A model generated the notes under the pieces. The model made no database searches. It was given only the letters and a program-made list of their open reading frames with translations, and had not been told where the DNA came from. A program made the translations under genes and the position numbers. From a virus (Duplodnaviria > Heunggongvirae > Uroviricota > Caudoviricetes): a stretch of 64,000 nt of DNA. The stretch's first letter is position 1. Each line of letters begins with the position of its first letter. The stretch is taken from IMG/VR virus record IMGVR_UViG_3300031134_000612. One strand, written 5' to 3'. Shown here one piece after another: positions 2,751 to 31,541 of the stretch.

Positions 2751-2756
2751 TTTTAA

Positions 2757-3924: not shown

Positions 3925-3946
3925 TAAAAAATGACTAATGAAAAAA

Positions 3947-3970: not shown

Positions 3971-3999
3971 TTTTAAAAGTTTAAAAATTCAATAAAAAA

Positions 4000-9855: not shown

Positions 9856-10740
9856 TTAACGAATGCTTTCATTAGGCTGTGACATTGAGAACATTTTCTC
9901 AATGAATTTACCCACTGCAGTTTCAAGCACCGCATCAAGGCCAACCAAACCAGCCAGACCACCACTTTTTGCTTTCACATCAGTGCTGACTTGATGAAGT
10001 TTGAAACCTTCTTTAAACGCTTTCAAAATAGCCGTGCGGCTATCACCGATTTCATCAACCAGTTTTTCAGCAACAACATCTTGTGCCATATAGAAATCAC
10101 CTTCCATCAGCTTTTCAGCATTGACATTAGGACGATATTTCAATACATGGTTTTTGAAAGCAGTATGAATATCAACCAGTTTTTCTTGGAACACTTTTTC
10201 TTGTTCGGCTGTCGGTGTTTGTGTAGGAACAACAGAACGTTTATTGGTGCCAGCAGTATAAACTTTTACTTTTACGCCGATTTTATCAAGAACTTCTTCA
10301 AAAATAGGAACCTGCGAAACCACGCCAATAGAGCCAACAAACGCAAAAGGTTGAGCCACAATACGGTCACACACGGAAGCCATCATATAACCACCACTTG
10401 CTGCTACTTCATCTACGAAAGCAGTGACATGAAGGCCGTGGGCACGAAGGCGACTGATTTGTTGTGCAGCGTTTGCATAGGCTGTTACACTGCCACCGGG
10501 GCTTTTGATAACCATATACACTGCGTCACCACGTTCGGAGTTCAGGATAGTCATGTCTACATCACGTTCGAGTTTTTCAAAAGCATTACCTTTATCTTCG
10601 GAGTTGAAACGAATGACAAAAATATTTTCATCTTTTGCATTAGCTTTAATTTGACGACGAACTTCTTTACTAGCGATGCTTTTAGTCAGTTCACGGTTCA
10701 GATCTTTGATTTCGGTTTTGAAACGAATTTCTTTAGACAT
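9856..10740 (-). CDS. peptidase S49 family protein (SppA/SohB-like signal-peptide-peptidase or ClpP-class prohead-protease fold)
   Basis: IKSPGGSVTAY and catalytic-Ser context AASGGYMMAS, typical of S49; GGAG SD present. Confidence 0.75.
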   Translation of the reverse strand: MSKEIRFKTEIKDLNRELTKSIASKEVRRQIKANAKDENIFVIRFNSEDKGNAFEKLERDVDMTILNSERGDAVYMVIKSPGGSVTAYANAAQQISRLRAHGLHVTAFVDEVAASGGYMMASVCDRIVAQPFAFVGSIGVVSQVPIFEEVLDKIGVKVKVYTAGTNKRSVVPTQTPTAEQEKVFQEKLVDIHTAFKNHVLKYRPNVNAEKLMEGDFYMAQDVVAEKLVDEIGDSRTAILKAFKEGFKLHQVSTDVKAKSGGLAGLVGLDAVLETAVGKFIEKMFSMSQPNESIR

Positions 10741-11144: not shown

Positions 11145-11173
11145 TAATGTTAAATTATTTACCGGAGTTACTT

Positions 11174-11776
11174 ATGAAATGGTTAAATTGTCAAGAAACA
11201 ATTAATAAATTACTCGAAAAAGGTTTTACAGTGTCTCATTGTCCAACTTACGAGCAATTAGCTCAAGGATCAAATGGACTTAAAGAAAACTTAAATGATG
11301 TACAGGGACTCAGAGTACTGAAAGATATGTTTGTTATCAATAAACATAATGCTAATGATTTCTTTAATACATTAGCAGGATACATTAATGATCCAGATTT
11401 CAATAAAATTGTGAAAATATTAAAAATATACGCTTATTTAGACTACCTGCTCTATACTGTTAATAGTAATGGGTTTTCAATCAATACTCGGGATCTTGAA
11501 GCTACCTATGTTAAACGAACACCAGTTAAGAAAACGGATACGACTAATATTCCAACCGTAAGGCACTCTAATTTGTGTCTTGAGATTTCTCTTGGCCCTA
11601 CAATGGAATGCACCTTACAAGCAAAAAACACTGAGTATCATTTTATAGACTTGTATAAGAAGGTGATTTTCCCAGCGTTTAAAGCCATGCTGAACGAAAC
11701 CATTGATTTAGACATTAAAAACATTAACGAATTTAATGATGATATGTTCGATTTGTTAAAGATGGCAAAAATTTAG
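11174..11776 (+). CDS. hypothetical protein, C-terminal-Met-tail family member (ends MFDLLKMAKI)
   Basis: ORF trimmed to MKWLNCQ, which has a GGAG SD 8 nt upstream; family C-terminal pattern. Confidence 0.55.
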   Translation: MKWLNCQETINKLLEKGFTVSHCPTYEQLAQGSNGLKENLNDVQGLRVLKDMFVINKHNANDFFNTLAGYINDPDFNKIVKILKIYAYLDYLLYTVNSNGFSINTRDLEATYVKRTPVKKTDTTNIPTVRHSNLCLEISLGPTMECTLQAKNTEYHFIDLYKKVIFPAFKAMLNETIDLDIKNINEFNDDMFDLLKMAKI

Positions 11777-12204: not shown

Positions 12205-13020
12205 TTAAATGGTCGTCATTATGAACAAATCAATTTTAGCCGCTAACTCATCTTGTGGAATAGCTAAAAAATCAGAGTAAATGCTATAATGGAGATTTTC
12301 AATATACATCATCAAGACTTCATGGGTAAAGATATCCACATCTTGATTGGTAAATACCGTGCTGGCTTCCACGATATCTTCAACAGTAGCTAACCCAGTT
12401 AAGTCATTAGGTAGCTTATACACAACCTTGTCTACCAAACTAAAATACAATGAAAATGGAAGATGATTAAAAAAACTAACAGTGGGGAACACCACGACTT
12501 TGTTGTCTCGGGTTACTGCAAAATTTTTCACAAATGCATACTGAGTAACATTTCTATATTTACCATGAAAACATGATGTTATACTATGTTTTTCATCATC
12601 TTTTCTTGTCATAGATAAAACAGAAACACCTGCAGGTGCTCGTTGAAATGTGTAGAACTCATGATTTTTAATACTCGAATTAATGGTCAAAAACTTCTGA
12701 AAATGTTTGTTATTTTCAAATCTTTTGATAAATTCATTAATGAAAAGAAACTGTTCTCTTGAATATTTACTCATATTGAAGACTTGGTTGAACTTGTCCA
12801 AGTTATAGGAGTTTTCTAGATAGACTGAATGGAACAACGGTTGGTTTGGTTTCATGCCGAATTTTACAAAACTTTTACCAATATTGCTTTCATACTGATG
12901 CATTTTAAACAAAACGTTAACACGAATATCTTCTTGTGGATAGTTTTGATATTCAAAGAAAGTCACTCGTGTGGATCTTGTATTAAAAGTATCAGAGATG
13001 GCTTTTTGAATATTTTCCAT
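12205..13020 (-). CDS. family member (271 aa; ends KIDLFIMTTI)
   Basis: First gene (lowest coordinate) of the 15-paralog minus-strand array; family C-terminal tail. Confidence 0.6.
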   Translation of the reverse strand: MENIQKAISDTFNTRSTRVTFFEYQNYPQEDIRVNVLFKMHQYESNIGKSFVKFGMKPNQPLFHSVYLENSYNLDKFNQVFNMSKYSREQFLFINEFIKRFENNKHFQKFLTINSSIKNHEFYTFQRAPAGVSVLSMTRKDDEKHSITSCFHGKYRNVTQYAFVKNFAVTRDNKVVVFPTVSFFNHLPFSLYFSLVDKVVYKLPNDLTGLATVEDIVEASTVFTNQDVDIFTHEVLMMYIENLHYSIYSDFLAIPQDELAAKIDLFIMTTI

Positions 13021-13052
13021 AGAAAACTCCTAAATAATAGGCGATTATACCA

Positions 13053-13844
13053 TTATATAAGATTCATTTCAACCAAATTCATCATGTCTTCATAATTTGA
13101 ACAGCTATCAAAGATAGTATCAACCAGTCGTCTATTTTTAAGAACCGCATCAATGTAATAAAAGAAAATATCATAAGACCATTCAGAATCAACCACATTT
13201 TTTAAATCATCGAGTTCAACACCGTTCTCAAACAATGATTCAAAGGTGAGCGAGTAACGGTCAGCATTATTTCCACTGAATGTTGATGAATTAGCTGCTT
13301 TATTGAGTTCTGGTGATAAAATGATAGAATAATTTTTTTGTTTTAAAGAAATATCCAAAAACAAAACGGGTCGAAATCTATTGGAGTTATCCAATACCAT
13401 TTTTTTTGTGTATGAATAATAAAAATTGTGATTATAAGGATTATGATAGAGTTCAATATCATTCAAGATTGAAGAATGATAAAACAGATGTTCGATTGTC
13501 TGATTGACTGTACGCTTTGTGTGTAGAAGTTTTAAATCAAAATAACCTTTTGTTTCAATCATGTGAACCAACGCATCATTCAAGAAAAAAGCACTGAATG
13601 CTTTCAATAATAAAAGATTATCACCATCAGTAGGGAGGATAGTCGGAATACATGATAAATAGACAGATTCATTGTAAAAAACAGAACTTGATATAAAATT
13701 TCCTTTAAAATTTAACAAAGCCACGGGTAAATCATGACTAGCCAGTAAAGAAACAGTAGATGAATTCAGAAACTCAGCACGACTGAAATAACCACAAAAG
13801 TTATCTTCAATGGCTTTTATAAAATGCTCATCAATCTTAGACAT
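13053..13844 (-). CDS. family member (263 aa; ends MMNLVEMNLI)
   Basis: Tandem with its neighbours and only a few nt from them; family tail. Confidence 0.6.
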   Translation of the reverse strand: MSKIDEHFIKAIEDNFCGYFSRAEFLNSSTVSLLASHDLPVALLNFKGNFISSSVFYNESVYLSCIPTILPTDGDNLLLLKAFSAFFLNDALVHMIETKGYFDLKLLHTKRTVNQTIEHLFYHSSILNDIELYHNPYNHNFYYSYTKKMVLDNSNRFRPVLFLDISLKQKNYSIILSPELNKAANSSTFSGNNADRYSLTFESLFENGVELDDLKNVVDSEWSYDIFFYYIDAVLKNRRLVDTIFDSCSNYEDMMNLVEMNLI

Positions 13845-13846
13845 GA

Positions 13847-14752
13847 TTAATACGTCAACATTTCAGTGACTTTCAATCGACCAATCAATTCCTCTCGGGG
13901 TAATGTCATCATTAGCTTCTTCTCCTTCAATTTTAAGTTTTCAGCACGACCAATCATGTCCACAACACATTTTAAAAATTTAGCATTAAACCTTTCAAAC
14001 ATCTGGTTGATATCCGCTTCCATATTATCAGAAAACATAGGGACTGCATACTTAAATTTTAAGGTTGACAAAACAGGGAGGTTAAATAATAACCCCGGAA
14101 CAAAAGCACCTTGACTGTCTTTCAATAACACAATTTCGACTTTTGATGGTGAAAAAGAAAAATTATTATTTTTTCGTGAGTTTTCTGTTTTTGACATATG
14201 CCCATAATAGGATTTACACAATCGTTGTTCTTTGGTGTCTTTGTATGTTTTCGTTTTCACAAAAAAGTCTTTCAATGTTTGTGGAACAGGACTTTTTTCA
14301 AACTTAGAAAAGAACTCAAATTCATCAGTTTCCTTAATATAACGGTCTATAACAGTGTCCATAATAGAAGCGGGCAAGGCCCGTCCTGCCATAAGCTGTT
14401 CAAACAACGTCAAAACTACCTTGCTTTTGTCTATTTTATCGTTAAATATGGTGTATACAGCTTGTCCATCATAGACATGATTATAAACCCTAAAATACTT
14501 GGTATCGAAAGAACTAGTTCCACGCTCAACCAACAGCTTAAACCCATAGGCACTATTTTCTTCAAGAGGATAATCTCTTGGGCCATATTTGTCAGCCATT
14601 ATCGTTCGTACTTGCTTTATCAGTGGTTCATAATCGTGCATTGCGGCCTCTTGTCGTTTTATAGTATTCTTGTCAACTTCATCAAAGGTGGTAATCTTAA
14701 CATCACCTTTCTTGATATTAGATAACAAGGTATTCAGTATAATTTTATTCAT
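13847..14752 (-). CDS. family member (301 aa; ends RLKVTEMLTY)
   Basis: Tandem array; family tail. Confidence 0.6.
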   Translation of the reverse strand: MNKIILNTLLSNIKKGDVKITTFDEVDKNTIKRQEAAMHDYEPLIKQVRTIMADKYGPRDYPLEENSAYGFKLLVERGTSSFDTKYFRVYNHVYDGQAVYTIFNDKIDKSKVVLTLFEQLMAGRALPASIMDTVIDRYIKETDEFEFFSKFEKSPVPQTLKDFFVKTKTYKDTKEQRLCKSYYGHMSKTENSRKNNNFSFSPSKVEIVLLKDSQGAFVPGLLFNLPVLSTLKFKYAVPMFSDNMEADINQMFERFNAKFLKCVVDMIGRAENLKLKEKKLMMTLPREELIGRLKVTEMLTY

Positions 14753-14767
14753 TTTTAATATCCTATC

Positions 14768-15547
14768 TTAAATATGACTCATTGCAATAACAGCGAGATG
14801 TTCGTCAAATGATTCTTGACTCATTGCATTAAAAGCAGCGTAATCAATATCAAATACTTTTTGGAACAACTTTTGGACAATAGGTAAGATGTCCAGTAAC
14901 GCCTTACCGATAAAACCATTTAAATCTTTTTGCATATTGTAAGCATTGTATAAATGGACATCATGTTTTATATTTCCAAATTGAATTCTCATGAAAGGAT
15001 AGGCAACAAAACTATTGCCTTCATAATAAAACATAATTTTGGTTAAAACAGTAATCAACGATTGTCGAATATTATAAATTTTATTATTGATGAAATGGTT
15101 AGAGTAAGTTTTAGTAGCAAAAAAATAAGCATGCGAACTGTAGTCACGAATATAGCCAAAGTCTGATTTTAATAAAGAATTATCCATAAAATCAGACTTT
15201 TTCAACAAACTGTATTTTTTTGTAAAGTTTAAAAAGTTTGATTTAAAAGAATCTACAATAACATCTGATTTTTTATGCATAAGTTTAGTTGATAGTTCTT
15301 GAAGAAACGTTTCGCTGATATCGGTTGAAATCTTGATAGTTTTCTTGTCTTGTCGATTAACGTGAGCATAGATGAAATGATTTCCTGTTTCCAATTGAAC
15401 AGTAAACTTAATAACATCTGTTATACCCATTTCAGCTTTGTGTTTAATGTTCATCCCTATAACATCAAGCCCCATCGTCTCTTTAAGCATTTTACAAAAA
15501 TCATGCTTAAGTGGTGTGAGGTGATTAAGAACTTTATCTTTCTTCAT
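14768..15547 (-). CDS. family member (259 aa; ends EHLAVIAMSHI)
   Basis: Tandem array with a 4-nt overlap to the upstream gene. Confidence 0.6.
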   Translation of the reverse strand: MKKDKVLNHLTPLKHDFCKMLKETMGLDVIGMNIKHKAEMGITDVIKFTVQLETGNHFIYAHVNRQDKKTIKISTDISETFLQELSTKLMHKKSDVIVDSFKSNFLNFTKKYSLLKKSDFMDNSLLKSDFGYIRDYSSHAYFFATKTYSNHFINNKIYNIRQSLITVLTKIMFYYEGNSFVAYPFMRIQFGNIKHDVHLYNAYNMQKDLNGFIGKALLDILPIVQKLFQKVFDIDYAAFNAMSQESFDEHLAVIAMSHI

Positions 15548-16350
15548 TCTATTAAAATCTCCAATATTCTAAAATCATCAACGGAACCAACAGACTGCTC
15601 ATCTGAAATAATATTAAATTTTGTTAAGAAAAACTGATACAATTTAGGTGTCATAGTTTCAATGAACAAATTAATAAAATAATCAATATCTTCATTTTTT
15701 TCATTTTTATCAATTTGAATTGTTTTAATTTTTCTATCTAAATAAAAAGAAATATGTGTTCGAGCATTTAAGTAAGGTAATGAACCTTTATAATTGTCAA
15801 TACTGTTTGAAATAAACAAACACTCGTTGTTTTTTTCATCAACAAAAAAGCGGACAAAACCAAAATCTCTGATATTAAATGATAAATCAATAATAGGTTT
15901 AATCTTAAAATCTTCTGTAATCACATAAGATTGCTCTAAATTAATCATATTCCATGCATTTCTGTATGAAAAATTGGACGCCATCGTAATTTTTTGAGCC
16001 GATGATCTATATTGTGCCAACATTCCCTTTTCCAAACAAACAGGTTCTCTGAAAATAATTTTTGAAATAGGCTGTTCAAAGAACGCATTAGTAATATATT
16101 GACAATTTGAAAAATCATCAAATTTAACAAACAATAGATCAACTTGTTCTTTAATACTAGGATCAACGAATAAATACCCCAGAACTTTACACAAGTTTTT
16201 ATCATATTCAAATTTTAATAATAACTTTGAATCTCCTTTTAGAAAAACACGAAAGGAACTGTCTTCTTCAATGTAAGAAAAAACATATTGCTCACCCATT
16301 ACTCGTTTAAAAGCTTCTTTAATATTGTCAACCGTTGTAAATTCATTCAT
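15544..16350 (-). CDS. family-like member (268 aa; ends FRILEILIE, Met not conserved)
   Basis: Same size class and array position; divergent tail. Confidence 0.5.
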   Translation of the reverse strand: MNEFTTVDNIKEAFKRVMGEQYVFSYIEEDSSFRVFLKGDSKLLLKFEYDKNLCKVLGYLFVDPSIKEQVDLLFVKFDDFSNCQYITNAFFEQPISKIIFREPVCLEKGMLAQYRSSAQKITMASNFSYRNAWNMINLEQSYVITEDFKIKPIIDLSFNIRDFGFVRFFVDEKNNECLFISNSIDNYKGSLPYLNARTHISFYLDRKIKTIQIDKNEKNEDIDYFINLFIETMTPKLYQFFLTKFNIISDEQSVGSVDDFRILEILIE

Positions 16351-17126
16351 CAGATGGTTTCCATTGTCATCAGTGTAAGATAGTCTTTAATAGATGTTTC
16401 TGAAAAACTGCTGGTATCAGAAATATCAAATTTCTTAGCAATAGTAGATACTGAGTTGGCTAAAATGATAGCTTTAACTTGATTGCATATGTCATCAACT
16501 CTATGGTTCAAAGTTCCATCATCTTTCAAATCAATAGAGAGTGTTTTACCTGTAATAGTAAAAGTTATCATTTTATTGGACTTTAATACAGTTCCGTCTA
16601 GATAATAATAAGGCTGACTTTTAAGACGTGAATTCATAAAAGAAAATTTATTCAAATGAGCCTCAAATGAAATTTTTCCCTGCAAAATTTCTTTATGTGT
16701 GCAATATTTAAGTTTTCTTTTTTTATCATGATATATTTCACCCATAGGTTCAGCATTAAATTTCATATGCACTGTGCCTACCTGAAAATCATCGAGTACA
16801 GATTTAATTGAATCTTTAATGAAATGAAGTTGTTTATTCTCTTGGTCTGATTTAAAACACAAGTATAAATCTCTAAGCGTGCCGGGATTGGAACTGCATT
16901 TTATTTCAATATGTGGAACATTATACAAGTAGTGAGCTGAGATATAATGAAGTTTATCTCGTGGTGTTTTATAATGACAAACAATCAGCATACCTGTTTG
17001 ATATTCGTTTTCTTCGATTGAAAAAGAGTCTAATTCATTAGATAAAACATCAACAATAAATTTCACAATATTGTTTTTAATAAAGTTAGCATTCTCTAAG
17101 AAAGTTGACATTAATCCAATCTCCAA
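16350..17126 (-). CDS. family member (258 aa; ends YLTLMTMETI)
   Basis: Tandem array; family tail. Confidence 0.6.
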   Translation of the reverse strand: MEIGLMSTFLENANFIKNNIVKFIVDVLSNELDSFSIEENEYQTGMLIVCHYKTPRDKLHYISAHYLYNVPHIEIKCSSNPGTLRDLYLCFKSDQENKQLHFIKDSIKSVLDDFQVGTVHMKFNAEPMGEIYHDKKRKLKYCTHKEILQGKISFEAHLNKFSFMNSRLKSQPYYYLDGTVLKSNKMITFTITGKTLSIDLKDDGTLNHRVDDICNQVKAIILANSVSTIAKKFDISDTSSFSETSIKDYLTLMTMETI

Positions 17127-17162
17127 AATATGGCAAGATTATACCATATTATTAGAGTTAAA

Positions 17163-17984
17163 TCAATAAGAAGCCATTTCAGTGACAATCACATAATCGA
17201 CTAATTCTTGCATAGAATAGTCTTTAAGGTCATCAAAGTTTTCATGAGAACGAAGACGAAGGTTTCGTTTAATGATTTCGTATAATTGAACGCGAATACA
17301 ATTTTCATATTTATACAAGAGTAGTTGCAAAGCTTCATCAGTGATGCCTTTATTGATATCCACCATCATGGTAAATTTAATATCGGCTAACAAGGGTATG
17401 TTGAGAACATAAACAGGAGCCAACTCACCAGAATAAGTGGACATATGTAAACTCATGGTACAAATGGAATGAGATGCTTTTACTTTTGAACTTGAAAATC
17501 GACGGCGTTGTTCAGCTCTGCGACTACGATCTGAATAATAAAACATAGACAAGTGTTTTTTATTGGTTAATTTTCTTCGACGGTTTTCAGTGGTTAATGA
17601 TTCAACTGAAAGATCTTTGGGATGATATTCAACGGAATCAAACTGGTTCCATTGTTTACCCACATCAAAAAAAGCTTGCATAATATTTTCTAAGTAAGCT
17701 TCATCGACAATGTTTTTATTGATAAGTGTTGAGTATAAAGCTTGATATTCCTGCATATCACCTTCAATACCCACTTTTAAAAAATGACCATTATGACAAG
17801 GCAATACATAAGCATTTAAAATAATATGAGCATTATGATTTTTTCGATATTTAAAAATGAAAAAGTTATCATGACCATAATCAATGGCATGATCACTCAA
17901 TGGAAAGTCTAATCCAGCAGACAACACTGTTGTAGCATGCTGCAACAGTGGCTGACAGATTTCTTTTACGTTGAGCTTAGACAC
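17163..17984 (-). CDS. family member (273 aa; ends YVIVTEMASY); GTG start abuts the serS stop (TAAGTG)
   Basis: ORF immediately downstream of serS on the same strand; the first codon is GTG directly after the TAA stop. Confidence 0.55.
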   Translation of the reverse strand: MSKLNVKEICQPLLQHATTVLSAGLDFPLSDHAIDYGHDNFFIFKYRKNHNAHIILNAYVLPCHNGHFLKVGIEGDMQEYQALYSTLINKNIVDEAYLENIMQAFFDVGKQWNQFDSVEYHPKDLSVESLTTENRRRKLTNKKHLSMFYYSDRSRRAEQRRRFSSSKVKASHSICTMSLHMSTYSGELAPVYVLNIPLLADIKFTMMVDINKGITDEALQLLLYKYENCIRVQLYEIIKRNLRLRSHENFDDLKDYSMQELVDYVIVTEMASY

Positions 17985-19277
<1,293 letters not shown>

Positions 19278-19304
19278 CTATCTTAACATAGTAATACTAT
19301 TTAT

Positions 19305-20075
19305 TCAATAGTGTTCGATGGCTAAAACGGGATAGTAAGCAATAAGTTCTTCATCAGACAAAGCGTAAACTTGTTGTGGCGTCATGTTATATAATTGACA
19401 CAATCGTCCAACTATGTTGGTTTTATGAAGTTCAAAAAACTGATGACTAAAAAATTGTACAGATTTCTCTAACAATACCAAATCATGTTCAATTTTTTTA
19501 CAGAATGAAAAATCTAAACCATAAGAAATAAAATGAAACTCGTCATTAAGATACAATTGATCGTTTTCAAATAGAAATTTAGGAATTCTCACCACATCAA
19601 AGGTTTCAAAAGGTGTAGTTACCTTAGCATGAACTGGAGCATTCAGTAATACCGAATTTGAGTGTTCTTTAAATTTTAAGGTGCTTTTGGTATAAGGCAA
19701 AACATTGATATGTTGAATTAAGTTCAAAGAATCGCTGTATTCTTTTGCCGCATTCATATACAAAGAAAAGGAGTCAGTGCTACGCTCTTTAAAGTATTTA
19801 ATAAATTTGTTATACAGTGGCAAATATTTTCTATTAACAATATTCAATAGAATGCTATTAACAACAGTAAGATCCATTCTTATATTATTTTGAACAGTAA
19901 AAGATAAGATCGTGGCTCCATTTCTACTATTGACATTAATCAAATTTTTATTCAGTTGTCCAGTGTAATTTCTAACACCGATTATAGTATGAAAAACAGG
20001 TGTTTCTTTTAAATGAGTTTTAAAAAAAGGTTTCACTGCTTTAATGACAGCATTACATAACTCTTCATCATTCAT
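19305..20075 (-). CDS. family member (256 aa; ends YYPVLAIEHY), close paralog of 20093..20854
   Basis: Shared internal motifs with the next gene (STDSFSLYM, TTPFE, FLFEN). Confidence 0.6.
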   Translation of the reverse strand: MNDEELCNAVIKAVKPFFKTHLKETPVFHTIIGVRNYTGQLNKNLINVNSRNGATILSFTVQNNIRMDLTVVNSILLNIVNRKYLPLYNKFIKYFKERSTDSFSLYMNAAKEYSDSLNLIQHINVLPYTKSTLKFKEHSNSVLLNAPVHAKVTTPFETFDVVRIPKFLFENDQLYLNDEFHFISYGLDFSFCKKIEHDLVLLEKSVQFFSHQFFELHKTNIVGRLCQLYNMTPQQVYALSDEELIAYYPVLAIEHY

Positions 20076-20092
20076 GATTCAAACTCCTTTAT

Positions 20093-20854
20093 CTAGTAAC
20101 GTTCCATAGACAAAACAGGGTAGTATTCTTGAAATTGTTTAGTTTTCCAAGTTTTAAAATCGCTCATAGGAATATCGTAGAGTTCATGTATTTTTCCTGT
20201 AATAGTATCATAATGTTTTTCGTAGAAATCTTGTGCAAACTCATCGACAACATCGTTAATATAATCAGTATCATTTTCTGTTTGCTGACAAAATGTATAT
20301 GGTGTTCCCATAGATGAAAAACTAAAATTGTCATGCAGGTAGAACCGATTATTTTCAAAGAAAAACCGTGGAACTTTTCTAATATTAATGATTTCAAAAG
20401 GCGTTGTAATTATAGCATGAACACATGAGTCAATTTTAACAAACTTATCATCATCTATTAATTTTCTGTTTTCCCAAGGCAAGATTTCAATAGCATTGAT
20501 CAAGTTTAATTTTTTTGTTTTTTGACGCACACTGTCCATATACAATGAAAAAGAATCTGAACTGTTTTTGCAGCATTTGTTGATGAATAAATTATAAATA
20601 TCTAAATGTCTCGGGTCATATAATTTAACCACAATACCTTGAAATGCTTGATTATAAACCTGCCTATTTTTAGTTATAACAAAAGATAGAAGTGAAACAC
20701 CAGTAGAAGATGTCATCGTCAACTTATCATGAGAAACACCTTGTGGATTAATATTGCTCATCAATTGACTAAAAAAGACAGGATAGTTTAGGTGTTCAGC
20801 AGCAAATAAGCTGAGAACATTCTGCATTTCTTGAAATAATAATTCTGTTCTCAT
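20093..20854 (-). CDS. family member (253 aa; ends YYPVLSMERY)
   Basis: Close paralog of 19305..20075. Confidence 0.6.
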   Translation of the reverse strand: MRTELLFQEMQNVLSLFAAEHLNYPVFFSQLMSNINPQGVSHDKLTMTSSTGVSLLSFVITKNRQVYNQAFQGIVVKLYDPRHLDIYNLFINKCCKNSSDSFSLYMDSVRQKTKKLNLINAIEILPWENRKLIDDDKFVKIDSCVHAIITTPFEIINIRKVPRFFFENNRFYLHDNFSFSSMGTPYTFCQQTENDTDYINDVVDEFAQDFYEKHYDTITGKIHELYDIPMSDFKTWKTKQFQEYYPVLSMERY

Positions 20855-21630
20855 ATTTTTTCCATTTCTAATAAGTGTACATAACGAACAATATCTTCAT
20901 CAGCTACCGTCTTAGGATCAAGTGTTTCTTTCAACCGTTGACGAACCTTATTGATAATATTTGCTTTTATCGTATTGTAAATTTCTTTTTCAAGATCACT
21001 ATAAAAATCAGGATTATTAGCCAACAATTGTGGATGGGAGCTAAGAATTTTATCTTTAAAAGCTACTGAATACGCTAACCGCAGGTCAAGGTATAGTTCA
21101 CCTTCATAAATAGTGAACACAACGTCATGCCTAATACTTGTAGAGCCTATTGATGATTTAAAATGGGCAATATCCTCACCAGAAAGCTTGTTAAATTCAT
21201 TAACAGTATTGACGCGATCAGAACTGAAAAGCGTCCATATTTCGTCTTCTTTTTTAACATATTCAGTTTTGAAAACTGATAGTTTATCGTTCACGCGAGC
21301 AAAAATATCGAGAACCCGAGTATAATGCTCAGGCGTTCTTTTCGCTTTTTTAACCATATCTCGTAGATAAATTTCTCCATCACCATCATAATGATAAACA
21401 TTTAAGATAGGCAAGATACCTTTTCGATCATTGACATAGATAATAAGAAGATGTTTTTTGTTTTGTCCTTCTTCAATACTAACCATAAACAATGGATTGA
21501 TAGCAGGCACTTCTTCAACCAACACATCAACATTAAAATGTTCTTTGAAGAACGCAGTAAATACTGGAATAACTAAATCTTTTAACATAACAAAAACTCC
21601 ATTATTAAATTTTAACCATAGCGATGACAT
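20851..21630 (-). CDS. family member (259 aa; ends YVHLLEMEKI)
   Basis: Tandem array with a 4-nt overlap. Confidence 0.55.
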   Translation of the reverse strand: MSSLWLKFNNGVFVMLKDLVIPVFTAFFKEHFNVDVLVEEVPAINPLFMVSIEEGQNKKHLLIIYVNDRKGILPILNVYHYDGDGEIYLRDMVKKAKRTPEHYTRVLDIFARVNDKLSVFKTEYVKKEDEIWTLFSSDRVNTVNEFNKLSGEDIAHFKSSIGSTSIRHDVVFTIYEGELYLDLRLAYSVAFKDKILSSHPQLLANNPDFYSDLEKEIYNTIKANIINKVRQRLKETLDPKTVADEDIVRYVHLLEMEKI

Positions 21631-22414
21631 CGAGGTACTTATTAAACAATTCTTGATTGGTATTGTTTAGATCGATGTCCATATTTAAAAACTTGGTTTC
21701 AATTCGTTCTTTAAAATGGTCATAGAAATAAGTATACAGCAAGTTTTTCACTAAGGGATCAACAGTAGACTGAGATGGTTTACTGACCAATATAAATTCT
21801 GAACCACAAGGTTGTAAAATGTTAACATGTTGGTCAAAGAATAGTCCCCTAATACTTAAATCAACTTTAAAGACACCTTTCTCAAATGATTGAGTCAGAT
21901 TACACTTTAAATCAACACTATTATTTCTAATCAGTTTTTTTACTACTGGATTATATTTAAGATTTGAAATAACAAGTGAATTTTTCTTATTGAGAACTGA
22001 TGTGTTAAAATGTAATAAAAGTAAGTCGGGTGTAAACACAACAGCACCTGTCTTGACAAACAAACCAATATCCAGACCTGCTTGAACATAGTTGTCATGA
22101 ATGCTTTTAATCGACTTAAAATTCACATCAAAAATATTCTCAAGATATTGTGTCATTCTGGATGTTTTGATAGCGTTGTCATCTGTATTGAATTCAAAGT
22201 GGAGATCATACAGTCTGCTTTTGTTGAGATTATCTTTTTTAGATTCCTCAATATGAATGACATCACCATTACTATTTGGAATCGTCAAGACAGATAATTC
22301 ACGCCCAGAAAAAAATTGTGGCTCACTGACATTATGGTTGTCATAAGAAAATCCTTCGGCCAAGAGCTTAGCTGAATGATGTAATTTAAATTGTTCTAAA
22401 AACAAGCTATTCAT
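21605..22414 (-). CDS. family member (269 aa; ends YLDVIAMVKI)
   Basis: Tandem array. Confidence 0.55.
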   Translation of the reverse strand: MNSLFLEQFKLHHSAKLLAEGFSYDNHNVSEPQFFSGRELSVLTIPNSNGDVIHIEESKKDNLNKSRLYDLHFEFNTDDNAIKTSRMTQYLENIFDVNFKSIKSIHDNYVQAGLDIGLFVKTGAVVFTPDLLLLHFNTSVLNKKNSLVISNLKYNPVVKKLIRNNSVDLKCNLTQSFEKGVFKVDLSIRGLFFDQHVNILQPCGSEFILVSKPSQSTVDPLVKNLLYTYFYDHFKERIETKFLNMDIDLNNTNQELFNKYLDVIAMVKI

Positions 22415-22466
22415 AAGAACTCCATAAAAGATGGCTTATTATAACACAAAAAAATAAAAAAATAAA

Positions 22467-23210
22467 TTAAATTTTTACCATTTTGTAAAGTTCAATAGCT
22501 TTCATTACAAGATCTTCTGATTGATCAATAATATCATATTCTGTACAGTTAGAGATTTCAGGTGCAATTTTATTGACCATCAATTTAAATAATAAACCTT
22601 CAAGTTCATTCTCATGATAATCAATACCTGCGTAAAAATAAATATCATCATTACTATTAAAAATGATAGTTTCATCCATAAATGAATAAGAAACACTCGT
22701 TGTATAAAATATTTCACCATGTTTCGTAACATTTAGACCATAAGTCTGAAAATTAAATACTTGTGTAGTTTCCATAATTCTTGCCATACTCGAATTAACA
22801 TTAAATAACTTGTTAGGAAACTTAAGATTATAAAAACTTTTTGCTGGGGTATTCGATATCTTATCCAATTCTTCTGAGCCATCATAAATACCTAGACGTT
22901 CTCCAATGCTCTTTTGAAGATTGTTTAAGTTTTCGTGTTTATTGAAATTAAATGGAAAAAAAGAAAGTTCTTGATTGAGTTTTTCATTTTTAAATTTTGA
23001 ATTAACTGGAAAATAACCATCATGGTAAATGTCAAGAACTAAACGACAAGGAAATTCATCATAAAAAGAAAAATTAATGATATATTCTGATGATTTTAGT
23101 TGAAATACAGCTACGGTGTCTTTAATGCAAAGTTTTTGCATAGTATAACCAGCCAATGAAAACTGGTTAGTATAACGTTCAAGAAAGTTATCAATAATCT
23201 GTTTTAACAT
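22467..23210 (-). CDS. family member (247 aa; ends IELYKMVKI)
   Basis: Tandem array. Confidence 0.55.
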   Translation of the reverse strand: MLKQIIDNFLERYTNQFSLAGYTMQKLCIKDTVAVFQLKSSEYIINFSFYDEFPCRLVLDIYHDGYFPVNSKFKNEKLNQELSFFPFNFNKHENLNNLQKSIGERLGIYDGSEELDKISNTPAKSFYNLKFPNKLFNVNSSMARIMETTQVFNFQTYGLNVTKHGEIFYTTSVSYSFMDETIIFNSNDDIYFYAGIDYHENELEGLLFKLMVNKIAPEISNCTEYDIIDQSEDLVMKAIELYKMVKI

Positions 23211-23219
23211 GTGATCGCC

Positions 23220-24041
23220 TTAAATAGTGAGCATTTCTAATATTTTTATTTGGTTTTTAAAATTGTTGTCAAAGACAATATCAATGTCTACATTTTTAAA
23301 CAATTTACCTATCTTGTTTTTTATAAAAAACCGTCTACTGGATGTAATGTATTCGAATAATTCATCTTTACTAAGAAATTTTTTTTCTGCTGGTAGATAA
23401 TAATCATTAGTATTACTAGTAAAGTCAATTTCAACAAAATAACGGGGTGAAAAATCAAGAATCACGCTATACAACGTTGAAATATTAAGTTCATCATCAA
23501 AAAATAAAGAAGTCAGTGTTTCATTATTCAGTTTTGCTCGATTGTATATTTTTTTGTAAAATGCTGAATACTTGATATCATGTATTATTTTTACACCATT
23601 AAAAACAGCTTGAAAGTCATTGGTCATTGAATTAAAACGTTTAAATGACTGTATTGTCCCCAACAAATGATCATCAGATTGAACAAAATCAAAAATTTCG
23701 AAAGATTTTTTATAATCAACTGAAATAAAAGGCATAATTTTCTTTATTGATTGATAAATAGTATTTTCATTTTGATTTGGACCTTCAACAGTGATTTTCA
23801 TTGGATAATGTGCAACAGTCGAGTTAAATTTCTCATCATAGGAAAAAACCTTTGTGAACAGTTCAAAAGTATAAGTGTCATGCTCACTTGATGTAAATAC
23901 AATAAGGGCTGAACTATTTTTTGTATATGAGTAATGCATTGTCCCTTTATCTAAAAGACTTAAGATAATCTCACTGTATCGCTGAATAAACAATGCTGTA
24001 TGTTTGACTAGTTGTTCATGAGCTGTCATATCACACCTCAA
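23220..24041 (-). CDS. family member (273 aa; ends IKILEMLTI)
   Basis: Tandem array. Confidence 0.55.
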   Translation of the reverse strand: MRCDMTAHEQLVKHTALFIQRYSEIILSLLDKGTMHYSYTKNSSALIVFTSSEHDTYTFELFTKVFSYDEKFNSTVAHYPMKITVEGPNQNENTIYQSIKKIMPFISVDYKKSFEIFDFVQSDDHLLGTIQSFKRFNSMTNDFQAVFNGVKIIHDIKYSAFYKKIYNRAKLNNETLTSLFFDDELNISTLYSVILDFSPRYFVEIDFTSNTNDYYLPAEKKFLSKDELFEYITSSRRFFIKNKIGKLFKNVDIDIVFDNNFKNQIKILEMLTI

Positions 24042-24645
24042 TCATTTCACAAAGTGATAGGTGATCACGAATGGTAGATGGTGAAAGTTCAAAAAACGTC
24101 TTTTTGGACATACCAACTTTTGTCTTTTTGTTGACGATATAATGAAGCGAACCCATCGTTTCGGTATAGAACAGATTCAAGAGTTCTGGAATAGTCACTT
24201 TTTTGTGATTTTCATAAACGTCATTCACATTGCGATAAGTTAGCCAAATATCCCCCGTATCCAAATCAAACCAGAGATCTTTTTTGTTCATCAAGTGAAC
24301 AGGCCAGCACAAACGCATGAAATGCCCAGTATAGAGTTGTTTTTCGCCTTCGTGACGACATTCAAACTCAGTATCAAAGCGATAAAAGATGATCGATGTT
24401 TTGGCAATTTGACCACTGCTGGATTTACGGCGATAGGCTGGAGTATAAGTAATTCGTTCAAAAACAGTTGATTGAGATTTCAAATAAGTAAAAGTGGCTT
24501 CAAAACCATTACTCATGACACGGTTCATAAAGCTATCCACTGTAAAACCTTTATCCATGAAAGCACCAAGTTCAACACTTTTTTCAAAAGCGGCTTGAAC
24601 AAACGTCTTAACATTGGTGAAATCAAACAGGTTTAAATCTTTCAT
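24031..24645 (-). CDS. family member (204 aa; ends HLSLCEMIEV); first gene of the minus-strand array
   Basis: GGAG SD upstream; family tail. Confidence 0.55.
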   Translation of the reverse strand: MKDLNLFDFTNVKTFVQAAFEKSVELGAFMDKGFTVDSFMNRVMSNGFEATFTYLKSQSTVFERITYTPAYRRKSSSGQIAKTSIIFYRFDTEFECRHEGEKQLYTGHFMRLCWPVHLMNKKDLWFDLDTGDIWLTYRNVNDVYENHKKVTIPELLNLFYTETMGSLHYIVNKKTKVGMSKKTFFELSPSTIRDHLSLCEMIEV

Positions 24646-24752: not shown

Positions 24753-24908
24753 TCAATAACCCAGTGCTTTTTCTCGTAGCTTTTCGAAATTTTCCCATGC
24801 TTTTTCTTTCGATACCCGTGGTGCAAATTTGGCTTCATGTTGTTTCCATGCTAGCTCAATATCGCGTTCTTTACGTTCGTTTTTGGTATTCACTACAATT
24901 TTAGCCAT
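24753..24908 (-). CDS. small Lys/Arg-rich protein (51 aa, MAKIVVNTKNERKERDIELAWKQHEAKFAPRVSKEKAWENFEKLREKALGY)
   Basis: Not in the supplied ORF track because it is under 60 aa. It has a GAGGA SD and a near-consensus minus-strand promoter (TTGACA-17-TATATT at 24951..24979). Confidence 0.45.
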   Translation of the reverse strand: MAKIVVNTKNERKERDIELAWKQHEAKFAPRVSKEKAWENFEKLREKALGY

Positions 24909-24950
24909 ATCTAAATCCTCATTTAATTAAGCTTTTGTGTTTGAGCTTTA

Positions 24951-25019: not shown

Positions 25020-25049
25020 TTGACAGATGTGGCTGTTTTTTGATATAAT
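25020..25049 (+). promoter_or_regulatory. sigma70-like promoter (TTGACA-18 nt-TATAAT) for 25080
   Basis: Consensus -35 and -10 hexamers; AAGGAG SD at 25065; ATG at 25080. Confidence 0.55.
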
Positions 25050-25079: not shown

Positions 25080-27197
25080 ATGTATATCAATACACAATAC
25101 ATCAATACATTAGAAGACATGTGCTTGAACAAAAGAACACATTATCATGGAAATAGGATGCTTGAGAGAGAGTTTGATAATTTTGGAATTTTTGGTTATG
25201 GAATGGGACGTTTTGATGAAGACAGTAGAGATTACCAAAAATATAACCTATTTCAAATTAAAGACAATATCGCTCTTCATATTTGTATGGGTAGTGAATT
25301 TTTAGACATGGATCTTTCTGTCTTCGACATGAAGAACAGAAAAGCTGAATATACCGATTTTTTAAATTCTGGTGAAGATAAACATTTTATATCGAGAATG
25401 TTTCTTGGGCGTCGTGGTCAAGACAGACATCTTATGGAAAATAGTCTTGAATTCAAAATGATGAATCTTGAACACACCATTCAGATGTCACTTTACAACA
25501 TAAAAGAAATCTTTATCTGTCAAAGTATGTTAAATTACACACCATTAGTTAACGAATGGCTCAACTTTGCGAATAAAAATAATATTGATATTTATGCTGA
25601 ATTGAAAGATATAATCGACCTTATCGAAAAAGATTACGGTTCCTTTAAGCTTTATGAAGAACTTTTGGAAGAAGCTCGTTTGATCAAACGTCACAATTTC
25701 AGACTATTATCGAAAGCTCATAGCAAAATGAGTCACAATTTCGGATCAGACCGTTTTTCAAGAACAGAAATGTTTTACTCATCTAACAATAGAAGACAAG
25801 ATATCCATCATCATGAAGATGATATTGATAGAGAACTCATTCATGAAATAAATAAAAGCCAGACAATCGTTGAAGAATTTAATGAAAAACTTCAACATTT
25901 AGTCAAATCTATAAATATGGATTATTTCACTGATGAAAATATTATCAACAACAATAAAATATTACTGGATTCATTGTTTGCTGCATATCAAAAATTAAAA
26001 CACAAAATCGCATTGCCTAAAACTCATGCGACAATATTTATCAAGGATATTAAAAAAGAAGTAACAGAAGAATTAAATATTGAAACATTTATAAGTAATC
26101 AAAAGAATAATATTATGATTGCTTTGGACAATGTTAAACTTGAAGATATTCGTTATCAAAAAGTTATTGTATTTACAGATTCAAGTTGTGTTGTTTTAAA
26201 AGAAAATGAAACAACATTTGAGTTTTTTATTGATATTAAAAAAATGAAAAGCTTGATAGCTGTCACTATGACCACTTATTTGAAAAATACACTGAGAAAA
26301 AATCCAACCATTAGTAAGGTAATGGTTCAATCATTTCATAACAGTATTGAAAAAATGAACAATAAAAATGAGTATCGTCATCATTCACCTTTACAGTTTA
26401 ACAAAATTCTTTTGAGCATTGACACCTATTTTAAAAATGAGAATATTTTAAAATCGTTGAAATATGACTTTATGGAGGTGTGTAAAACAGCTACATCATT
26501 TGAAAAAGTAGACGATGATATGCACAAATTGATTCGTGAACATAAAATAAAGAAATTTGCTGAAAGCATTGTCAGTAGCAAATACAAACATCTTTATACT
26601 AAAGAAAGTTATAAACTCTTTCAAGAATTGTATGACTTGAATATTGATACAAAAACTCTTCAAGAAATGCTTGGTAAAAAAATGGCTGCTGTAGAAACTA
26701 AGCAGATGTTTAATGAAAACATAAAAAAACTGCTCAATAGTCTTAATGAGTTTGATATGGATTCTGTTAAGCTAAAAGCTAACTCTTATGGTGCCAAAAT
26801 AATTGCGGACGAAAATGAAATACTTATTTTAGAAATTAAAGACTTTGTTCAGTCTCAAAAGCTTGGAAGTGCTTCATGGTGTATCAGCCGTAACCAGTCA
26901 TACTTTGAACAGTATACAGAGAAAGGTGGAAAGCAATATTTTATTTATGACTTCAATCAAGATTCAAAAAGTGTTAAATCACTGGTAGGGATTACATTAA
27001 CCAAAGCATTTAAGGTAAAAGCTGCTCATAGTAAAAGTGATTCACAATTTAAAGATAAAAAGATGATTGATTACCTCATCGAAAAAGTAAAACCAATTGA
27101 AGTAGAAAAAGAAAAGAAACCAGTGGCAACACGAAAGCCTAGAACAAAAAAAGTGGTCACAGCTCCTGAGTTAACTGTACACAACATTGGCTTTTAA
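25080..27197 (+). CDS. large hypothetical protein (705 aa), paralog of 7795..9708, with a Lys-rich C-terminal extension
   Basis: See 7795..9708; strong SD and promoter. Confidence 0.65.
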   Translation: MYINTQYINTLEDMCLNKRTHYHGNRMLEREFDNFGIFGYGMGRFDEDSRDYQKYNLFQIKDNIALHICMGSEFLDMDLSVFDMKNRKAEYTDFLNSGEDKHFISRMFLGRRGQDRHLMENSLEFKMMNLEHTIQMSLYNIKEIFICQSMLNYTPLVNEWLNFANKNNIDIYAELKDIIDLIEKDYGSFKLYEELLEEARLIKRHNFRLLSKAHSKMSHNFGSDRFSRTEMFYSSNNRRQDIHHHEDDIDRELIHEINKSQTIVEEFNEKLQHLVKSINMDYFTDENIINNNKILLDSLFAAYQKLKHKIALPKTHATIFIKDIKKEVTEELNIETFISNQKNNIMIALDNVKLEDIRYQKVIVFTDSSCVVLKENETTFEFFIDIKKMKSLIAVTMTTYLKNTLRKNPTISKVMVQSFHNSIEKMNNKNEYRHHSPLQFNKILLSIDTYFKNENILKSLKYDFMEVCKTATSFEKVDDDMHKLIREHKIKKFAESIVSSKYKHLYTKESYKLFQELYDLNIDTKTLQEMLGKKMAAVETKQMFNENIKKLLNSLNEFDMDSVKLKANSYGAKIIADENEILILEIKDFVQSQKLGSASWCISRNQSYFEQYTEKGGKQYFIYDFNQDSKSVKSLVGITLTKAFKVKAAHSKSDSQFKDKKMIDYLIEKVKPIEVEKEKKPVATRKPRTKKVVTAPELTVHNIGF

Positions 27198-27286: not shown

Positions 27287-27733
27287 ATGAATCAACAGGA
27301 ACAGGCAACATTAACGACAATATATAGAACAATGATAGGATTAACCATTACAGCTCCATTCATGGCCTTATTCATCACATTACCATTAAATCTACCAGTT
27401 GTGCTAACAACAGCTTTAATAGCCAACATGATACTTTCTGCAAAATATTACAAAGACACCATTCGAACATCTTTTGAAAGCGACATTAAAAAGTTACTGG
27501 ATTTTTTTGTTACGTCAATTACTATACTATTCTTAACATCAATTCCAGCATGGATATATTCTTACATGCCCGTCAATGATAACATGATCATGCTCAATAT
27601 GAAGATTATTGCAGACTTAATTGATTTTTTAGGTGAGCTTGGTGCTTGGGGTTATTATTTAGTTGTCGTCATAATAGATTATCATCAATTTAAAAAGCTA
27701 AAAAATAAAAAATCGAATATGTTTCTAGCTTAA
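27287..27733 (+). CDS. small integral membrane protein (about 4 TM), paralog of 27844..28260
   Basis: Four hydrophobic segments; the terminator-promoter-gene cassette is duplicated in tandem. Confidence 0.55.
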   Translation: MNQQEQATLTTIYRTMIGLTITAPFMALFITLPLNLPVVLTTALIANMILSAKYYKDTIRTSFESDIKKLLDFFVTSITILFLTSIPAWIYSYMPVNDNMIMLNMKIIADLIDFLGELGAWGYYLVVVIIDYHQFKKLKNKKSNMFLA

Positions 27734-27843: not shown

Positions 27844-28260
27844 ATGGATGACAACAGTAATTATCCAGCAATTAAAAGTCTTTACAAAGTCTTAATTTTC
27901 CTAACATTTGCAGGGCCAATACTTGCGTTGGCTATTTCATTTAGGTCATATGTATTAGGTTTCCTAGCAATAGCTCTACTCAGTCTCACACCAAATATCC
28001 TGATATTTCATAGATATTACAAATCACATGATGAATCCAGATATCAACAACATATCAAAAAAATATTGAAAACATTTTCAATTGCACTGATTATTTTTGT
28101 GATTTCATTTTTACCAATGTTTACAATGGATAATACAGAAAATGGAATTCAATGGCTGTCTATTTTAGCGGTAGCTGGATTTGTGGTTGGGAGTTTATTT
28201 TCTTGGACATACTACACATATGGAATAATAAAAAACTATAAATTACTAGATAAAGAATAA
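27844..28260 (+). CDS. small integral membrane protein (about 4 TM), paralog of 27287..27733
   Basis: Same topology and length as the preceding gene, with a near-identical upstream region. Confidence 0.55.
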   Translation: MDDNSNYPAIKSLYKVLIFLTFAGPILALAISFRSYVLGFLAIALLSLTPNILIFHRYYKSHDESRYQQHIKKILKTFSIALIIFVISFLPMFTMDNTENGIQWLSILAVAGFVVGSLFSWTYYTYGIIKNYKLLDKE

Positions 28261-31437: not shown

Positions 31438-31541
31438 AAATGATAATCTCTCTATAAAAATAATGCTATAATTATAGCATAGTGACAATTTTTAAGCAAT
31501 AAAAAAGAACCAGAAGGTTCTTTCTTAATGAGATTGAGTAA

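Follow-up and report, generated by a model that had tools for sequence, protein, structure and literature searches.

What unites three dozen proteins whose bodies hardly resemble one another, and why do their chains end alike? The question is raised by a stretch of 64,000 nucleotides catalogued as viral (IMG/VR record IMGVR_UViG_3300031134_000612; hereafter the window, by which we mean the whole 64-kb stretch that was analysed), which a first-pass annotation had described as carrying a massive multigene family of open reading frames (ORFs) defined only by a Met-containing C-terminal tail, with its largest array at 12205-24645. Our analyses revealed that this large, lineage-restricted family is real, its motif being enriched in the window and rare in AT-rich control elements, and that its bodies are indeed too diverged to align, such that all-vs-all BLAST and iterated hidden Markov models (HMMs) linked only six small groups of them.

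The C-terminal motif and its controls

We scored a strict motif (a hydrophobic residue at position -7 or -6, Met at -4 and I, L, V, F, Y, M or C at -1, the last residue being -1) in the 73 non-nested ORFs of at least 100 amino acids (aa) in the window, which revealed it at the C-terminus of 32 ORFs. Internal positions matched at a rate of 0.49%, from which about 0.36 C-terminal matches are expected; shuffling the last 30 aa of every ORF gave a mean of 0.77 and a maximum of 5 matches over 2000 trials; and 5 of 392 out-of-frame stop-to-stop ORFs bore the motif. The excess over these three controls is 40- to 90-fold. Within the window, an HMM of the tail also separated members (9-37 bits) from non-members (at most 3.5 bits).

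Four further ORFs possess near-variant tails, at 15544-16350 (ILEILIE), 19305-20075 (VLAIEHY), 3292-3924 (VLNMLKIN) and 47666-48286 (IIMYYQ), and bring the family to the 36 members counted originally, which cover 42% of the window rather than the 45% first estimated. Because the orthologues of 15544-16350 and 19305-20075 in a related genome end in canonical tails (FKVLEMLKV and VLAMERY), the motif is evidently maintained, with decay now and then in single lineages. The Met at -4, once called invariant, is nearly so, with Ile substituting in a few members. Family proteins in the window are 186-310 aa long, and tail-bearing ORFans overall 186-362 aa.

Selection on the tail and extent of the module

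We evaluated selection across 15 orthologue triplets from the window and two related genomes, L006 (from a 1.84-Mb ENA contig) and L009 (from a 391-kb JGI contig). Invariant positions made up 76% of the last 10 aa versus 52% of the body, and nonsynonymous difference fell from 0.26 in the body to 0.14 over the last 14 codons, with a synonymous difference in the tail of 0.53 per site. Such free synonymous change places the constraint on amino acids and not on a promoter, ribosome-binding site or RNA element, and on these grounds we rejected a ribosome-binding site or other nucleotide signal as the cause of the motif. For the bodies the ratio of nonsynonymous to synonymous change (dN/dS) is about 0.2, with dS near saturation, which indicates functional proteins.

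These figures bear directly on whether the motif could be an artefact, arising by chance in Ile/Met/Lys-rich proteins, from spurious ORFs or from a DNA or RNA signal such as the ribosome-binding site of the next gene. The genome is AT-rich and several tails do overlap the ribosome-binding region of the next gene, but the excess over controls refutes this explanation, amino acids are kept in the tail while its synonymous sites diverge, singletons with no coupled downstream gene bear the tail, and the ORFs have Shine-Dalgarno sites and orthologues at the dN/dS given above. AT-rich controls tell the same story: none of 35 ORFs carried the tail in two loci with a related TnpB (L016 and L017, 26.7% GC) and 1 of 223 did so in 27 metagenomic loci (21-35% GC), that is, 1 of 258 ORFs, which makes the motif clade-specific and not a by-product of composition. 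We therefore give an artefact practically no chance of being correct.

The bodies change several-fold faster than the core genes around them. Between 29 and 73% of body positions per family member are the same in all three genomes, against 91-92% identity for the seryl-tRNA synthetase (SerRS). In L003, a 437-kb IMG/VR contig, neighbouring core genes are 69-83% identical and positional family orthologues 28-39%, yet these orthologues keep the tail, the most constrained part of the family proteins.

Alignment of the 32 strict members at their C-termini extended this conservation inward. Asp at -22, a position outside the motif selection rule, occurs in 17 members and Glu in 5 more, L, V or I stands at -7 in all 32, and other conserved positions include hydrophobic residues at -21/-20 and -14/-13, Asp at -11, Tyr or Glu at -10 and Ile or Leu at -9. 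Glu at -5 is found in 12 of the 32, and many tails, read by eye, have an [S/T/D]xxE-type helix start near -17. The module consensus is approximately D-h-h-x5-h-h-x-D-[Y/E]-h-x-L-h-[E]-M-x-x-[I/Y/F]-COOH, where h is hydrophobic, with a variant in the 59858-63804 group (...TDFLxxxKMFxxxExxIIxMxYI) that has Asp at -22 likewise. Pooling the tail-bearing proteins of the window, of about 150 kb of related loci and of the database matches gave 114 sequences in 38 BLAST clusters; when 17 cluster profiles were compared by hhalign, 16 of the 30 best alignments ran C-terminus to C-terminus in register over 14-70 columns, and no body-to-body alignment extended beyond close relatives. The family signature is thus a C-terminal module of about 24 aa, sometimes reaching 50-70 aa, so that the view of a family defined only by its tail holds in that the shared part is C-terminal and fails in that the conserved unit is longer than 10 aa.

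The chain ends three residues past the Met in nearly all members, even at about 15% body identity, and a near-invariant Met at -4 followed by so fixed an end suggests that the chain end itself is read. One conceivable reader is an AAA+ protease of the host or the element, for which the tail would be a degron imposing a short, co-ordinated lifetime on the whole family. ClpXP, ClpAP, FtsH and Lon all read non-polar tags at the C-terminus, for instance ssrA (...YALAA) and the end of SulA, and the motif does lie at the exact C-terminus with a hydrophobic last residue, some members ending in hydrophobic-Tyr-X (MMYI, MYYY). That ending is missing in most members, however, the tail is unlike LAA-type or RRKKAI-type ClpX motifs, and a constraint over about 24 residues, Asp at -22 included, far exceeds what a degron needs; we consider a degron very unlikely.

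Distribution and database searches

Searches of known families returned little. Pfam gave no match above the gathering score for 20 tail-bearing proteins (the best, at E=0.009, fell under the cut-off), PHROGs no match below E=0.004 for 10 members and PADLOC no match for six, while an NCBIfam scan covered neighbouring non-family genes only. Neither tblastn of 11 concatenated members (2924 aa) against 50,697 GenBank phage genomes (E<=0.01) nor megablast of the 13-kb array against GenBank phages produced a match. Among 5.8 billion clustered proteins, the product of 20851-21630 has only 9 relatives, all at least 59% identical, and a 14-sequence profile of the 59858 group found only 16 representatives at E<=0.001 among 1.84 billion proteins; of the twelve newly found representatives of that group, 10 end three residues past the Met, 1 has Ile in its place (LIEIALC) and 1 is truncated. 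A tail-only HMM was rejected as a database probe, with independent members scoring 5-27 bits and distant L003 members at most 6 bits.

Searches for related genomes were similarly sparse. GTDB species representatives had no match with the family profile or with the ligase, an IMG/VR scan with SerRS had none, and one with the ligase found a single viral contig, the 437-kb L003. A TnpB-based search found two more loci of the clade (L013 and L015) and otherwise unrelated AT-rich elements, which served as negative controls. As no sequence family, fold match or published description was found, we rate the family as categorically new as a family.

Within the clade the tail is common. It occurs in 8(+3) of 28 ORFs in L015, where there are new arrays that include ...EMELI four times, in 2 of 14 ORFs in L013 and, more sparsely, in 1 of 13 and 2 of 9 ORFs in the 10-kb flanks of the window, amounting to about 25% of ORFs in sampled regions outside the window. 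All tail-bearing proteins are ORFans, with none among aminoacyl-tRNA synthetases (aaRS), ligase or other recognisable proteins. The earlier idea of a tag appended to diversified effectors is right about the divergence of the bodies, but a tag confined to ORFans and never seen on known-domain proteins is better described by one diversified family.

So many different bearers, with the tail at the extreme C-terminus and at a fixed distance, could alternatively point to a cargo-loading or sorting address into one compartment, on the model of the encapsulin loading peptide or the T4 capsid-targeting sequence; proteins so marked would enter the capsid for co-ejection or gather in a compartment assembled as infection proceeds. 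IMG/VR lists one relative contig as viral, paralogous head proteins from tandem genes are packaged by the giant phages phiKZ and 201phi2-1, and short C-terminal peptides that bind an HK97-fold shell recruit encapsulin cargo. Against this stand the failure to see any gene for a capsid, portal, terminase or shell in about 150 kb of sampled sequence, gene strings that hold serS and sigma-70-like matches with no obvious late module, a peptide that is helical, hydrophobic-acidic and without a flexible linker, unlike the extended Gly/Ser/Leu-rich peptides of encapsulin cargo, and the element's viral nature, which is not established. We hold such an address to be improbable.

Bodies and predicted structures

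The N-terminal 150-250 aa of family proteins are hypervariable. Once tails were stripped, orthologue profiles compared by hhalign gave signal in three pairs only (19305/20093, the non-family 27287/27844 and, weakly, 13847/17163), and a comparison of subfamily profiles A1 and A4 gave no match.

AlphaFold models of two members show a common plan, with an alpha/beta start, an antiparallel beta-meander and C-terminal helices, on bodies that are a pair of alpha+beta sandwiches in model 1 (20851-21630) and an OspA-like beta-meander in model 2 (59858-60655; predicted template modelling score, pTM, 0.80). In both, the tail is a terminal alpha-helix preceded by other helices and not the buried strand that might have explained the motif away. 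The helix is modelled with different confidence, its predicted local distance difference test score (pLDDT) being 51-64 in model 1, the lowest of any helix there, and about 80-84 in model 2.

Such models may also be read without any external partner, the tail being an intrinsic cap or core of one ancient fold, or a hairpin for homo- or heterodimerisation as a four-helix bundle. The well-modelled helix and pTM of model 2 favour this, as do the common plan of the two models, the confinement of the tail to ORFans of similar length and the placing of hydrophobic residues at -1, -4, -6, -7, -9/-10 and -13/-14 on more than one helix face, as in a buried or bundle-like helix. An intrinsic element would, however, predict Leu, Ile or Phe and ragged ends, and a near-invariant Met with an exact end, kept across more than 35 clusters whose cores profiles no longer join, is unusual for a structural helix; the tail of model 1 is, moreover, its least confident helix. 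We regard this explanation, the main rival, as doubtful, if a serious one.

The proteins themselves are proposed to be soluble and cytoplasmic. The hydrophobicity cutoff for membrane segments was exceeded by 2 of 32 members only, isoelectric points are mixed and the net charge of the tail is about -1.

A proposed constant handle for variable bodies

The reading we favour, tentatively and at rather less than even confidence, is one family diversified by tandem duplication whose constant C-terminal helices dock variable bodies onto one partner; we infer a single origin of the bodies, the docking function and both the existence and the nature of that partner. In an uncultivated, roughly 1.9-Mb genome whose gene content is virus-like, repeated tandem duplication would have given rise to a hyper-diversified paralogous family. 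Each protein would consist of a fast-evolving alpha/beta body of about 160-280 aa and a constant module of about 24 aa, in which a short helix begins at Asp -22 and is followed by a capped four-turn helix that ends the chain. The module would serve as a common handle by which all members dock onto one partner protein or assembly, a product of the element or of its host, and the variable body would lend each member a different specificity or activity, making the family a set of adaptors or effectors plugged into one hub.

Docking is supported by the constraint on the tail, the fixed chain end, the differing modelled bodies and the apparently soluble members, whose genes adjoin sigma-70-like promoter matches and share gene strings with serS. 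Several points nonetheless weigh against it. No docking partner was identified, and the narrow length range and ORFan-only bodies would fit equally well a plain divergent family whose best-conserved core happens to be C-terminal. The terminal helix of model 2 may pack against its own body and so not be free to dock, and the two modelled bodies look different, two models being too few for a verdict on one fold versus several. A tail on about a quarter of sampled genes would demand one hub with very many clients, a pattern that suits a sorting signal more than adaptors. Finally, promoter-like sites are only weakly enriched (128 versus 105 +/- 10 in shuffles), which leaves the expression class uncertain.

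A bolder version, which we think rather unlikely, is that a bacterial virus-like element of about 1.9 Mb carries one hyper-variable family whose 24-residue helix is a new prokaryotic sorting or docking signal. The helix would then route or plug a diversified library into one machine or compartment, such as a protease, RNA polymerase, the inside of the capsid or a compartment of infection, and the family, at 42% of the window, might run to hundreds of genes genome-wide. If either a docking or a sorting signal proves true, it would provide a compact, portable tag of about 24 aa that is directly testable and would show how very large prokaryotic elements organise big proteomes. The family is in any case one of extreme body divergence with an anchored terminus, and offers a handle for annotating an otherwise unannotatable genome.

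Array organisation, members and expression signals

The arrays are co-directional and translationally coupled, as first described, with spacing from an 11-nucleotide (nt) overlap to a 52-nt gap and five overlapping junctions (15544/15547, 16350, 20851/20854, 24031/24041 and 29584). The largest, on the minus strand at 12205-24645, is syntenic in L006 and L009, serS included, and holds 14 family genes plus serS where 15 consecutive family genes had been listed. Its first seven members are 12205-13020 (...DLFIMTTI), 13053-13844 (...NLVEMNLI), 13847-14752 (...KVTEMLTY), which has weak body similarity to 17163-17984, 14768-15547 (...AVIAMSHI), 15544-16350, with its degenerate tail ...RILEILIE, 16350-17126 (...TLMTMETI), with an extended -10 promoter-like site at 17166-17138, and 17163-17984 (...IVTEMASY), whose start codon abuts the stop codon of the non-family serS (17985-19256, minus strand; the enzyme is the SerRS compared above). 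Members 8 to 14 follow at 19305-20075 (variant tail ...PVLAIEHY with Ile at -4), a paralogue of member 9 at 20093-20854 (...PVLSMERY), then at 20851-21630 (...HLLEMEKI), 21605-22414 (...DVIAMVKI), 22467-23210 (...ELYKMVKI), 23220-24041 (...KILEMLTI) and 24031-24645 (...SLCEMIEV), the last being the first transcribed, with a promoter-like site at 24701-24673. Member 10 probably starts at the Met codon at 21588: its first 14 residues are missing in 5 of 8 relatives, which begin at a Met matching residue 15, and with this start the apparent 26-nt overlap with 21605-22414 disappears.

Other minus-strand groups are a trio at 28811-29584 (...TLAEMALI), 29584-30285 (...TLIAMDSI) and 30287-31021 (...TVLSMDNI), a quartet at 47666-48286 (variant ...KTIIMYYQ), 48296-48964 (...QIVKMYYY), 48966-49661 (...ELIKMVYF) and 49695-50429 (...TLVKMMYY), a second quartet at 51225-51794 (...DVIRMSFI), 51801-52361 (...DLIRMITI), 52429-53058 (...QLFMMYVI) and 53055-53915 (...SLLLMEAI), and the members at 59858-60655 (...ELIRMMYI), 60665-61453 (...DIIEMMYI), 62316-63167 (...KIIEMAFF) and 63145-63804 (...VIAEMALC). 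Standing apart on the plus strand are 3292-3924, whose variant tail ...VLNMLKIN runs one residue past the motif, 11147-11776 (...DLLKMAKI; ELLKMAKI in its L006 orthologue), which had been misplaced at 11174, the 310-aa singleton 34529-35461 (...DLISMTAI) and 44530-45330 (...KVKEMMYI). Minus-strand singletons lie at 37227-38066 (...KLSDMIRL), at 40333-40995 (...MLFEMSQI), where the positional orthologue in L003 is 28% identical and ends TLVEMMSY, and, adjoining ligA, at 55977-56795 (...TLFDMMKI).

Expression in the window is, as far as its signals tell, bacterial in type. Shine-Dalgarno cores lie upstream of 27 of 73 window starts versus 3% of all ATGs, and of 37-64% of starts in related loci; sigma-70-like promoter matches occur beside and inside the arrays, including a perfect TTGACA-18-TGnTATAAT match at 25020-25049 (plus strand); and intrinsic-terminator-like hairpins lie downstream of several window genes. 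We rejected an alternative genetic code or readthrough joining ORFs, as all three stop codons are used, housekeeping genes are intact and the ORFs overlap or occupy different frames.

The 435-nt gap between the large array and the gene at 25080-27197 holds back-to-back promoter-like sites, 25020-25049 (plus) and 24979-24951 (minus), and between this pair and the array come an unannotated small ORF on the minus strand (about 24770-24910) and a hairpin resembling a terminator (24733-24712). The gene at 25080-27197 (plus), which adjoins the 14-gene array and is divergent from it, encodes an ORFan of 705 aa with a 637-aa paralogue at 7795-9708 (minus), the two being 38% identical over the C-terminal 300 aa. 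Orthologues of 25080-27197 have a conserved ...IGF-COOH end of their own (NIGF, NIGF, TIGF), and neither protein of the pair had a Pfam, PHROG, PADLOC or PDB match. A gene for an S49/NfeD-type serine peptidase (9856-10740, minus) stands near the end of the large array in both the window and L006.

The genome carrying the family

Independent ENA, JGI and Logan assemblies contain exact copies of window proteins on contigs 1.28, 1.84, 1.86 and 1.92 Mb long, among them the related loci L004, L006 and L011 on contigs k141_1011963 and k141_522346. The largest phage genome that we found reported in the literature is 841 kb, with no megabase-scale phage found, so these contigs are up to more than twice that size. 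Recognisable genes in the window, which has a GC content of about 32%, are tyrS, serS, thrS, NAD+-dependent ligA, TnpB, the S49/NfeD-type peptidase, SPFH, a Pol-beta-like nucleotidyltransferase, tRNA-Lys and tRNA-Pro. Its flanks and the other loci add a PNKP-like phosphatase, R2K ATP-grasp, DsbA, NUDIX, nucleoside deoxyribosyltransferase, MYG1, thyA, NadR-like and carboxylate-reductase-like proteins and asparagine synthase, the remainder being ORFans. The roughly 150 kb sampled, out of about 1.9 Mb, showed no core genes of a cell and no structural genes of a phage.

The carrier is accordingly either a phage-like element of unprecedented size or a highly atypical cell. A eukaryotic giant virus was rejected, given Shine-Dalgarno cores at 37-64% of starts versus a 3% background. 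Were the carrier an unrecognised intracellular bacterium, the family could be secreted effectors and the tail a type IV (Dot/Icm-like) C-terminal translocation signal. A genome of about 1.9 Mb with 32% GC and bacterial translation signals, many ORFan paralogues in islands and a slightly acidic tail would all suit such a cell, and in Dot/Icm substrates the C-terminal signal depends in part on a hydrophobic residue near -3/-4. The sampled loci, however, hold no ribosomal, RNA polymerase, envelope, central-metabolism or secretion-system gene, and what is recognisable is large-phage-like (aaRS, NAD+ ligase, PNKP-like, R2K, NUDIX and thyA, with a Pol-beta-like nucleotidyltransferase shared with jumbo phages and a threonyl-tRNA synthetase, ThrRS, without its N-terminal editing region). 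Known type IV signals are also compositional rather than a near-invariant motif, and the genome was not found in GTDB. An intracellular bacterium has, in our judgement, little to recommend it, about as little as the degron. The carrier might rank as the biggest virus-like element known from bacteria, or else be a highly unusual cell, and may matter more than the family itself.

Other genes of the window

Several of the recognisable genes have features of their own. ThrRS (46447-47625, plus) is 392 aa long, matches its profile only from position 173 of 565, and so lacks the N-terminal TGS/editing region, and is 83% identical in the distant relative L003. The Pol-beta-like nucleotidyltransferase (43379-44476, plus; PHROG 24943) is 26-34% identical to its phage relatives, nearly all of which come from genomes of about 156-735 kb, among them those of Pseudomonas, Acinetobacter, Xanthomonas and Stenotrophomonas phages and of metagenomic huge phages (484-735 kb). 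TnpB (IS605 OrfB/Cas12f-like; 1329-2750, plus) is 473 aa long against 506-551 aa in its relatives, and its true start is therefore probably upstream. It is single-copy in the window's genome, with copies 81-89% identical at different loci of the related genomes (L013 and L015) and distant copies (43-73%) on other AT-rich contigs of up to 678 kb; in L013 about 2.2 kb without an ORF of at least 90 aa (2273-4501) adjoins a second TnpB-like gene. An SPFH (stomatin-like) gene is followed by a small ORF at 31018-32444 (minus), and S49/NfeD and SPFH pairs are unusual cargo for a phage-like element.

Smaller families are present as well. Tandem paralogues of about 140-150 aa at 27287-27733 and 27844-28260 (plus) number two in the window and four each in L006 (2353-4247) and L009 (2396-4296), so that close relatives differ in copy number. 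A second small family ends in a conserved Cys/His C-terminus of its own, possibly a metal-binding tail, with members at 161-553 (minus) and, in L011, at 8833-9225 and 9405-9704, whose ends read ...CTCDCHIEGVVCLH and ...CTCECHITGNGIYVLH. Lastly, the 140-aa ORF at 36420-36842 (plus) has a Tyr/Pro-rich low-complexity C-terminus, ...YYAPPVQRVYYNSYYP.

Comparison with known systems

The family belongs to none of the known systems with which we compared it, because the defining features that we examined were either absent here or had no clear counterpart in the sampled data. Some motif-level candidates were rejected outright. The HbYX motif for docking to proteasomes or rings requires a Tyr at -2 that only 6 of 32 members possess; the 47666-50429 and 59858-61453 groups often have it, and no member of the 12205-24645 array does. 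FTKRERDIIEMMYI and similar tails recall the opening helix of sigma-70 region 4 (L[ST]xxExxhhxh), a likeness that any capped amphipathic helix would show; a sigma-70 region 4 or LuxR-type helix-turn-helix was rejected, as the proteins end after this first helix and have no sigma or LuxR (Sigma70_r4, GerE) Pfam match. CaaX-like boxes and PDZ class motifs were rejected too, neither fitting the tails of all members.

Among peptides read at a free C-terminus by one AAA+ machine, the ClpX-binding XB peptide of SspB and the ssrA degrons are alike in principle. None of the 36 tails, however, matches ...LRVVK, ...LAA/...YALAA or ...RRKKAI-like ends, the constraint here spans at least 22 residues, and peptides of that type are not attached to an expanded multigene family. 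Legionella and Coxiella Dot/Icm effectors comprise hundreds of clustered, often paralogous, lineage-specific ORFans that share only a C-terminal signal, but those signals are loosely compositional (a Glu-rich block and small polar residues), the motif here is far more defined, and, unlike Dot/Icm genomes, the sampled loci show no secretion genes and a gene content that is not cell-like.

Encapsulin cargo peptides and the T4 capsid-targeting sequence share the idea of a short terminal peptide on unrelated proteins that serves as an address into an HK97-fold shell, and giant phages likewise encode tandem paralogous proteins that are packaged. The encapsulin peptides are extended and follow a flexible linker, whereas the tail here (h-x-L-h-E-M-x-x-I) is predicted to be helical and comes directly after helices. 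The T4 sequence is N-terminal and cleaved after Leu/Ile-x-Glu, in contrast to a C-terminal module with Glu at -5 in only 12 of 32 members. No capsid or encapsulin match to Pfam or PHROGs was seen in the window or flanks, whose neighbouring genes are mostly ORFans.

Closer in genome organisation are the expanded families of giant viruses and jumbo phages (the genomic accordion), which similarly form tandem, co-directional, rapidly diverging paralogues that fill much of very large AT-rich genomes with aaRS and tRNA genes. These are built on recognisable domains (ankyrin, BTB, F-box, MORN or tail-fibre), whereas only the C-terminal module is shared here. The poxvirus ANK-PRANC (F-box-like) proteins differ too, with no sequence or profile similarity (Pfam being negative), non-repeat bodies here, a module of about 24 aa as opposed to about 40-50 and a bacterial host in which no ubiquitin system is expected. 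They are nevertheless a large, tandem-duplicated viral family combining a variable body with a short conserved C-terminal helical module, and that module docks every member onto the Skp1/cullin-1 hub, which makes them the closest analogy for the logic proposed here.

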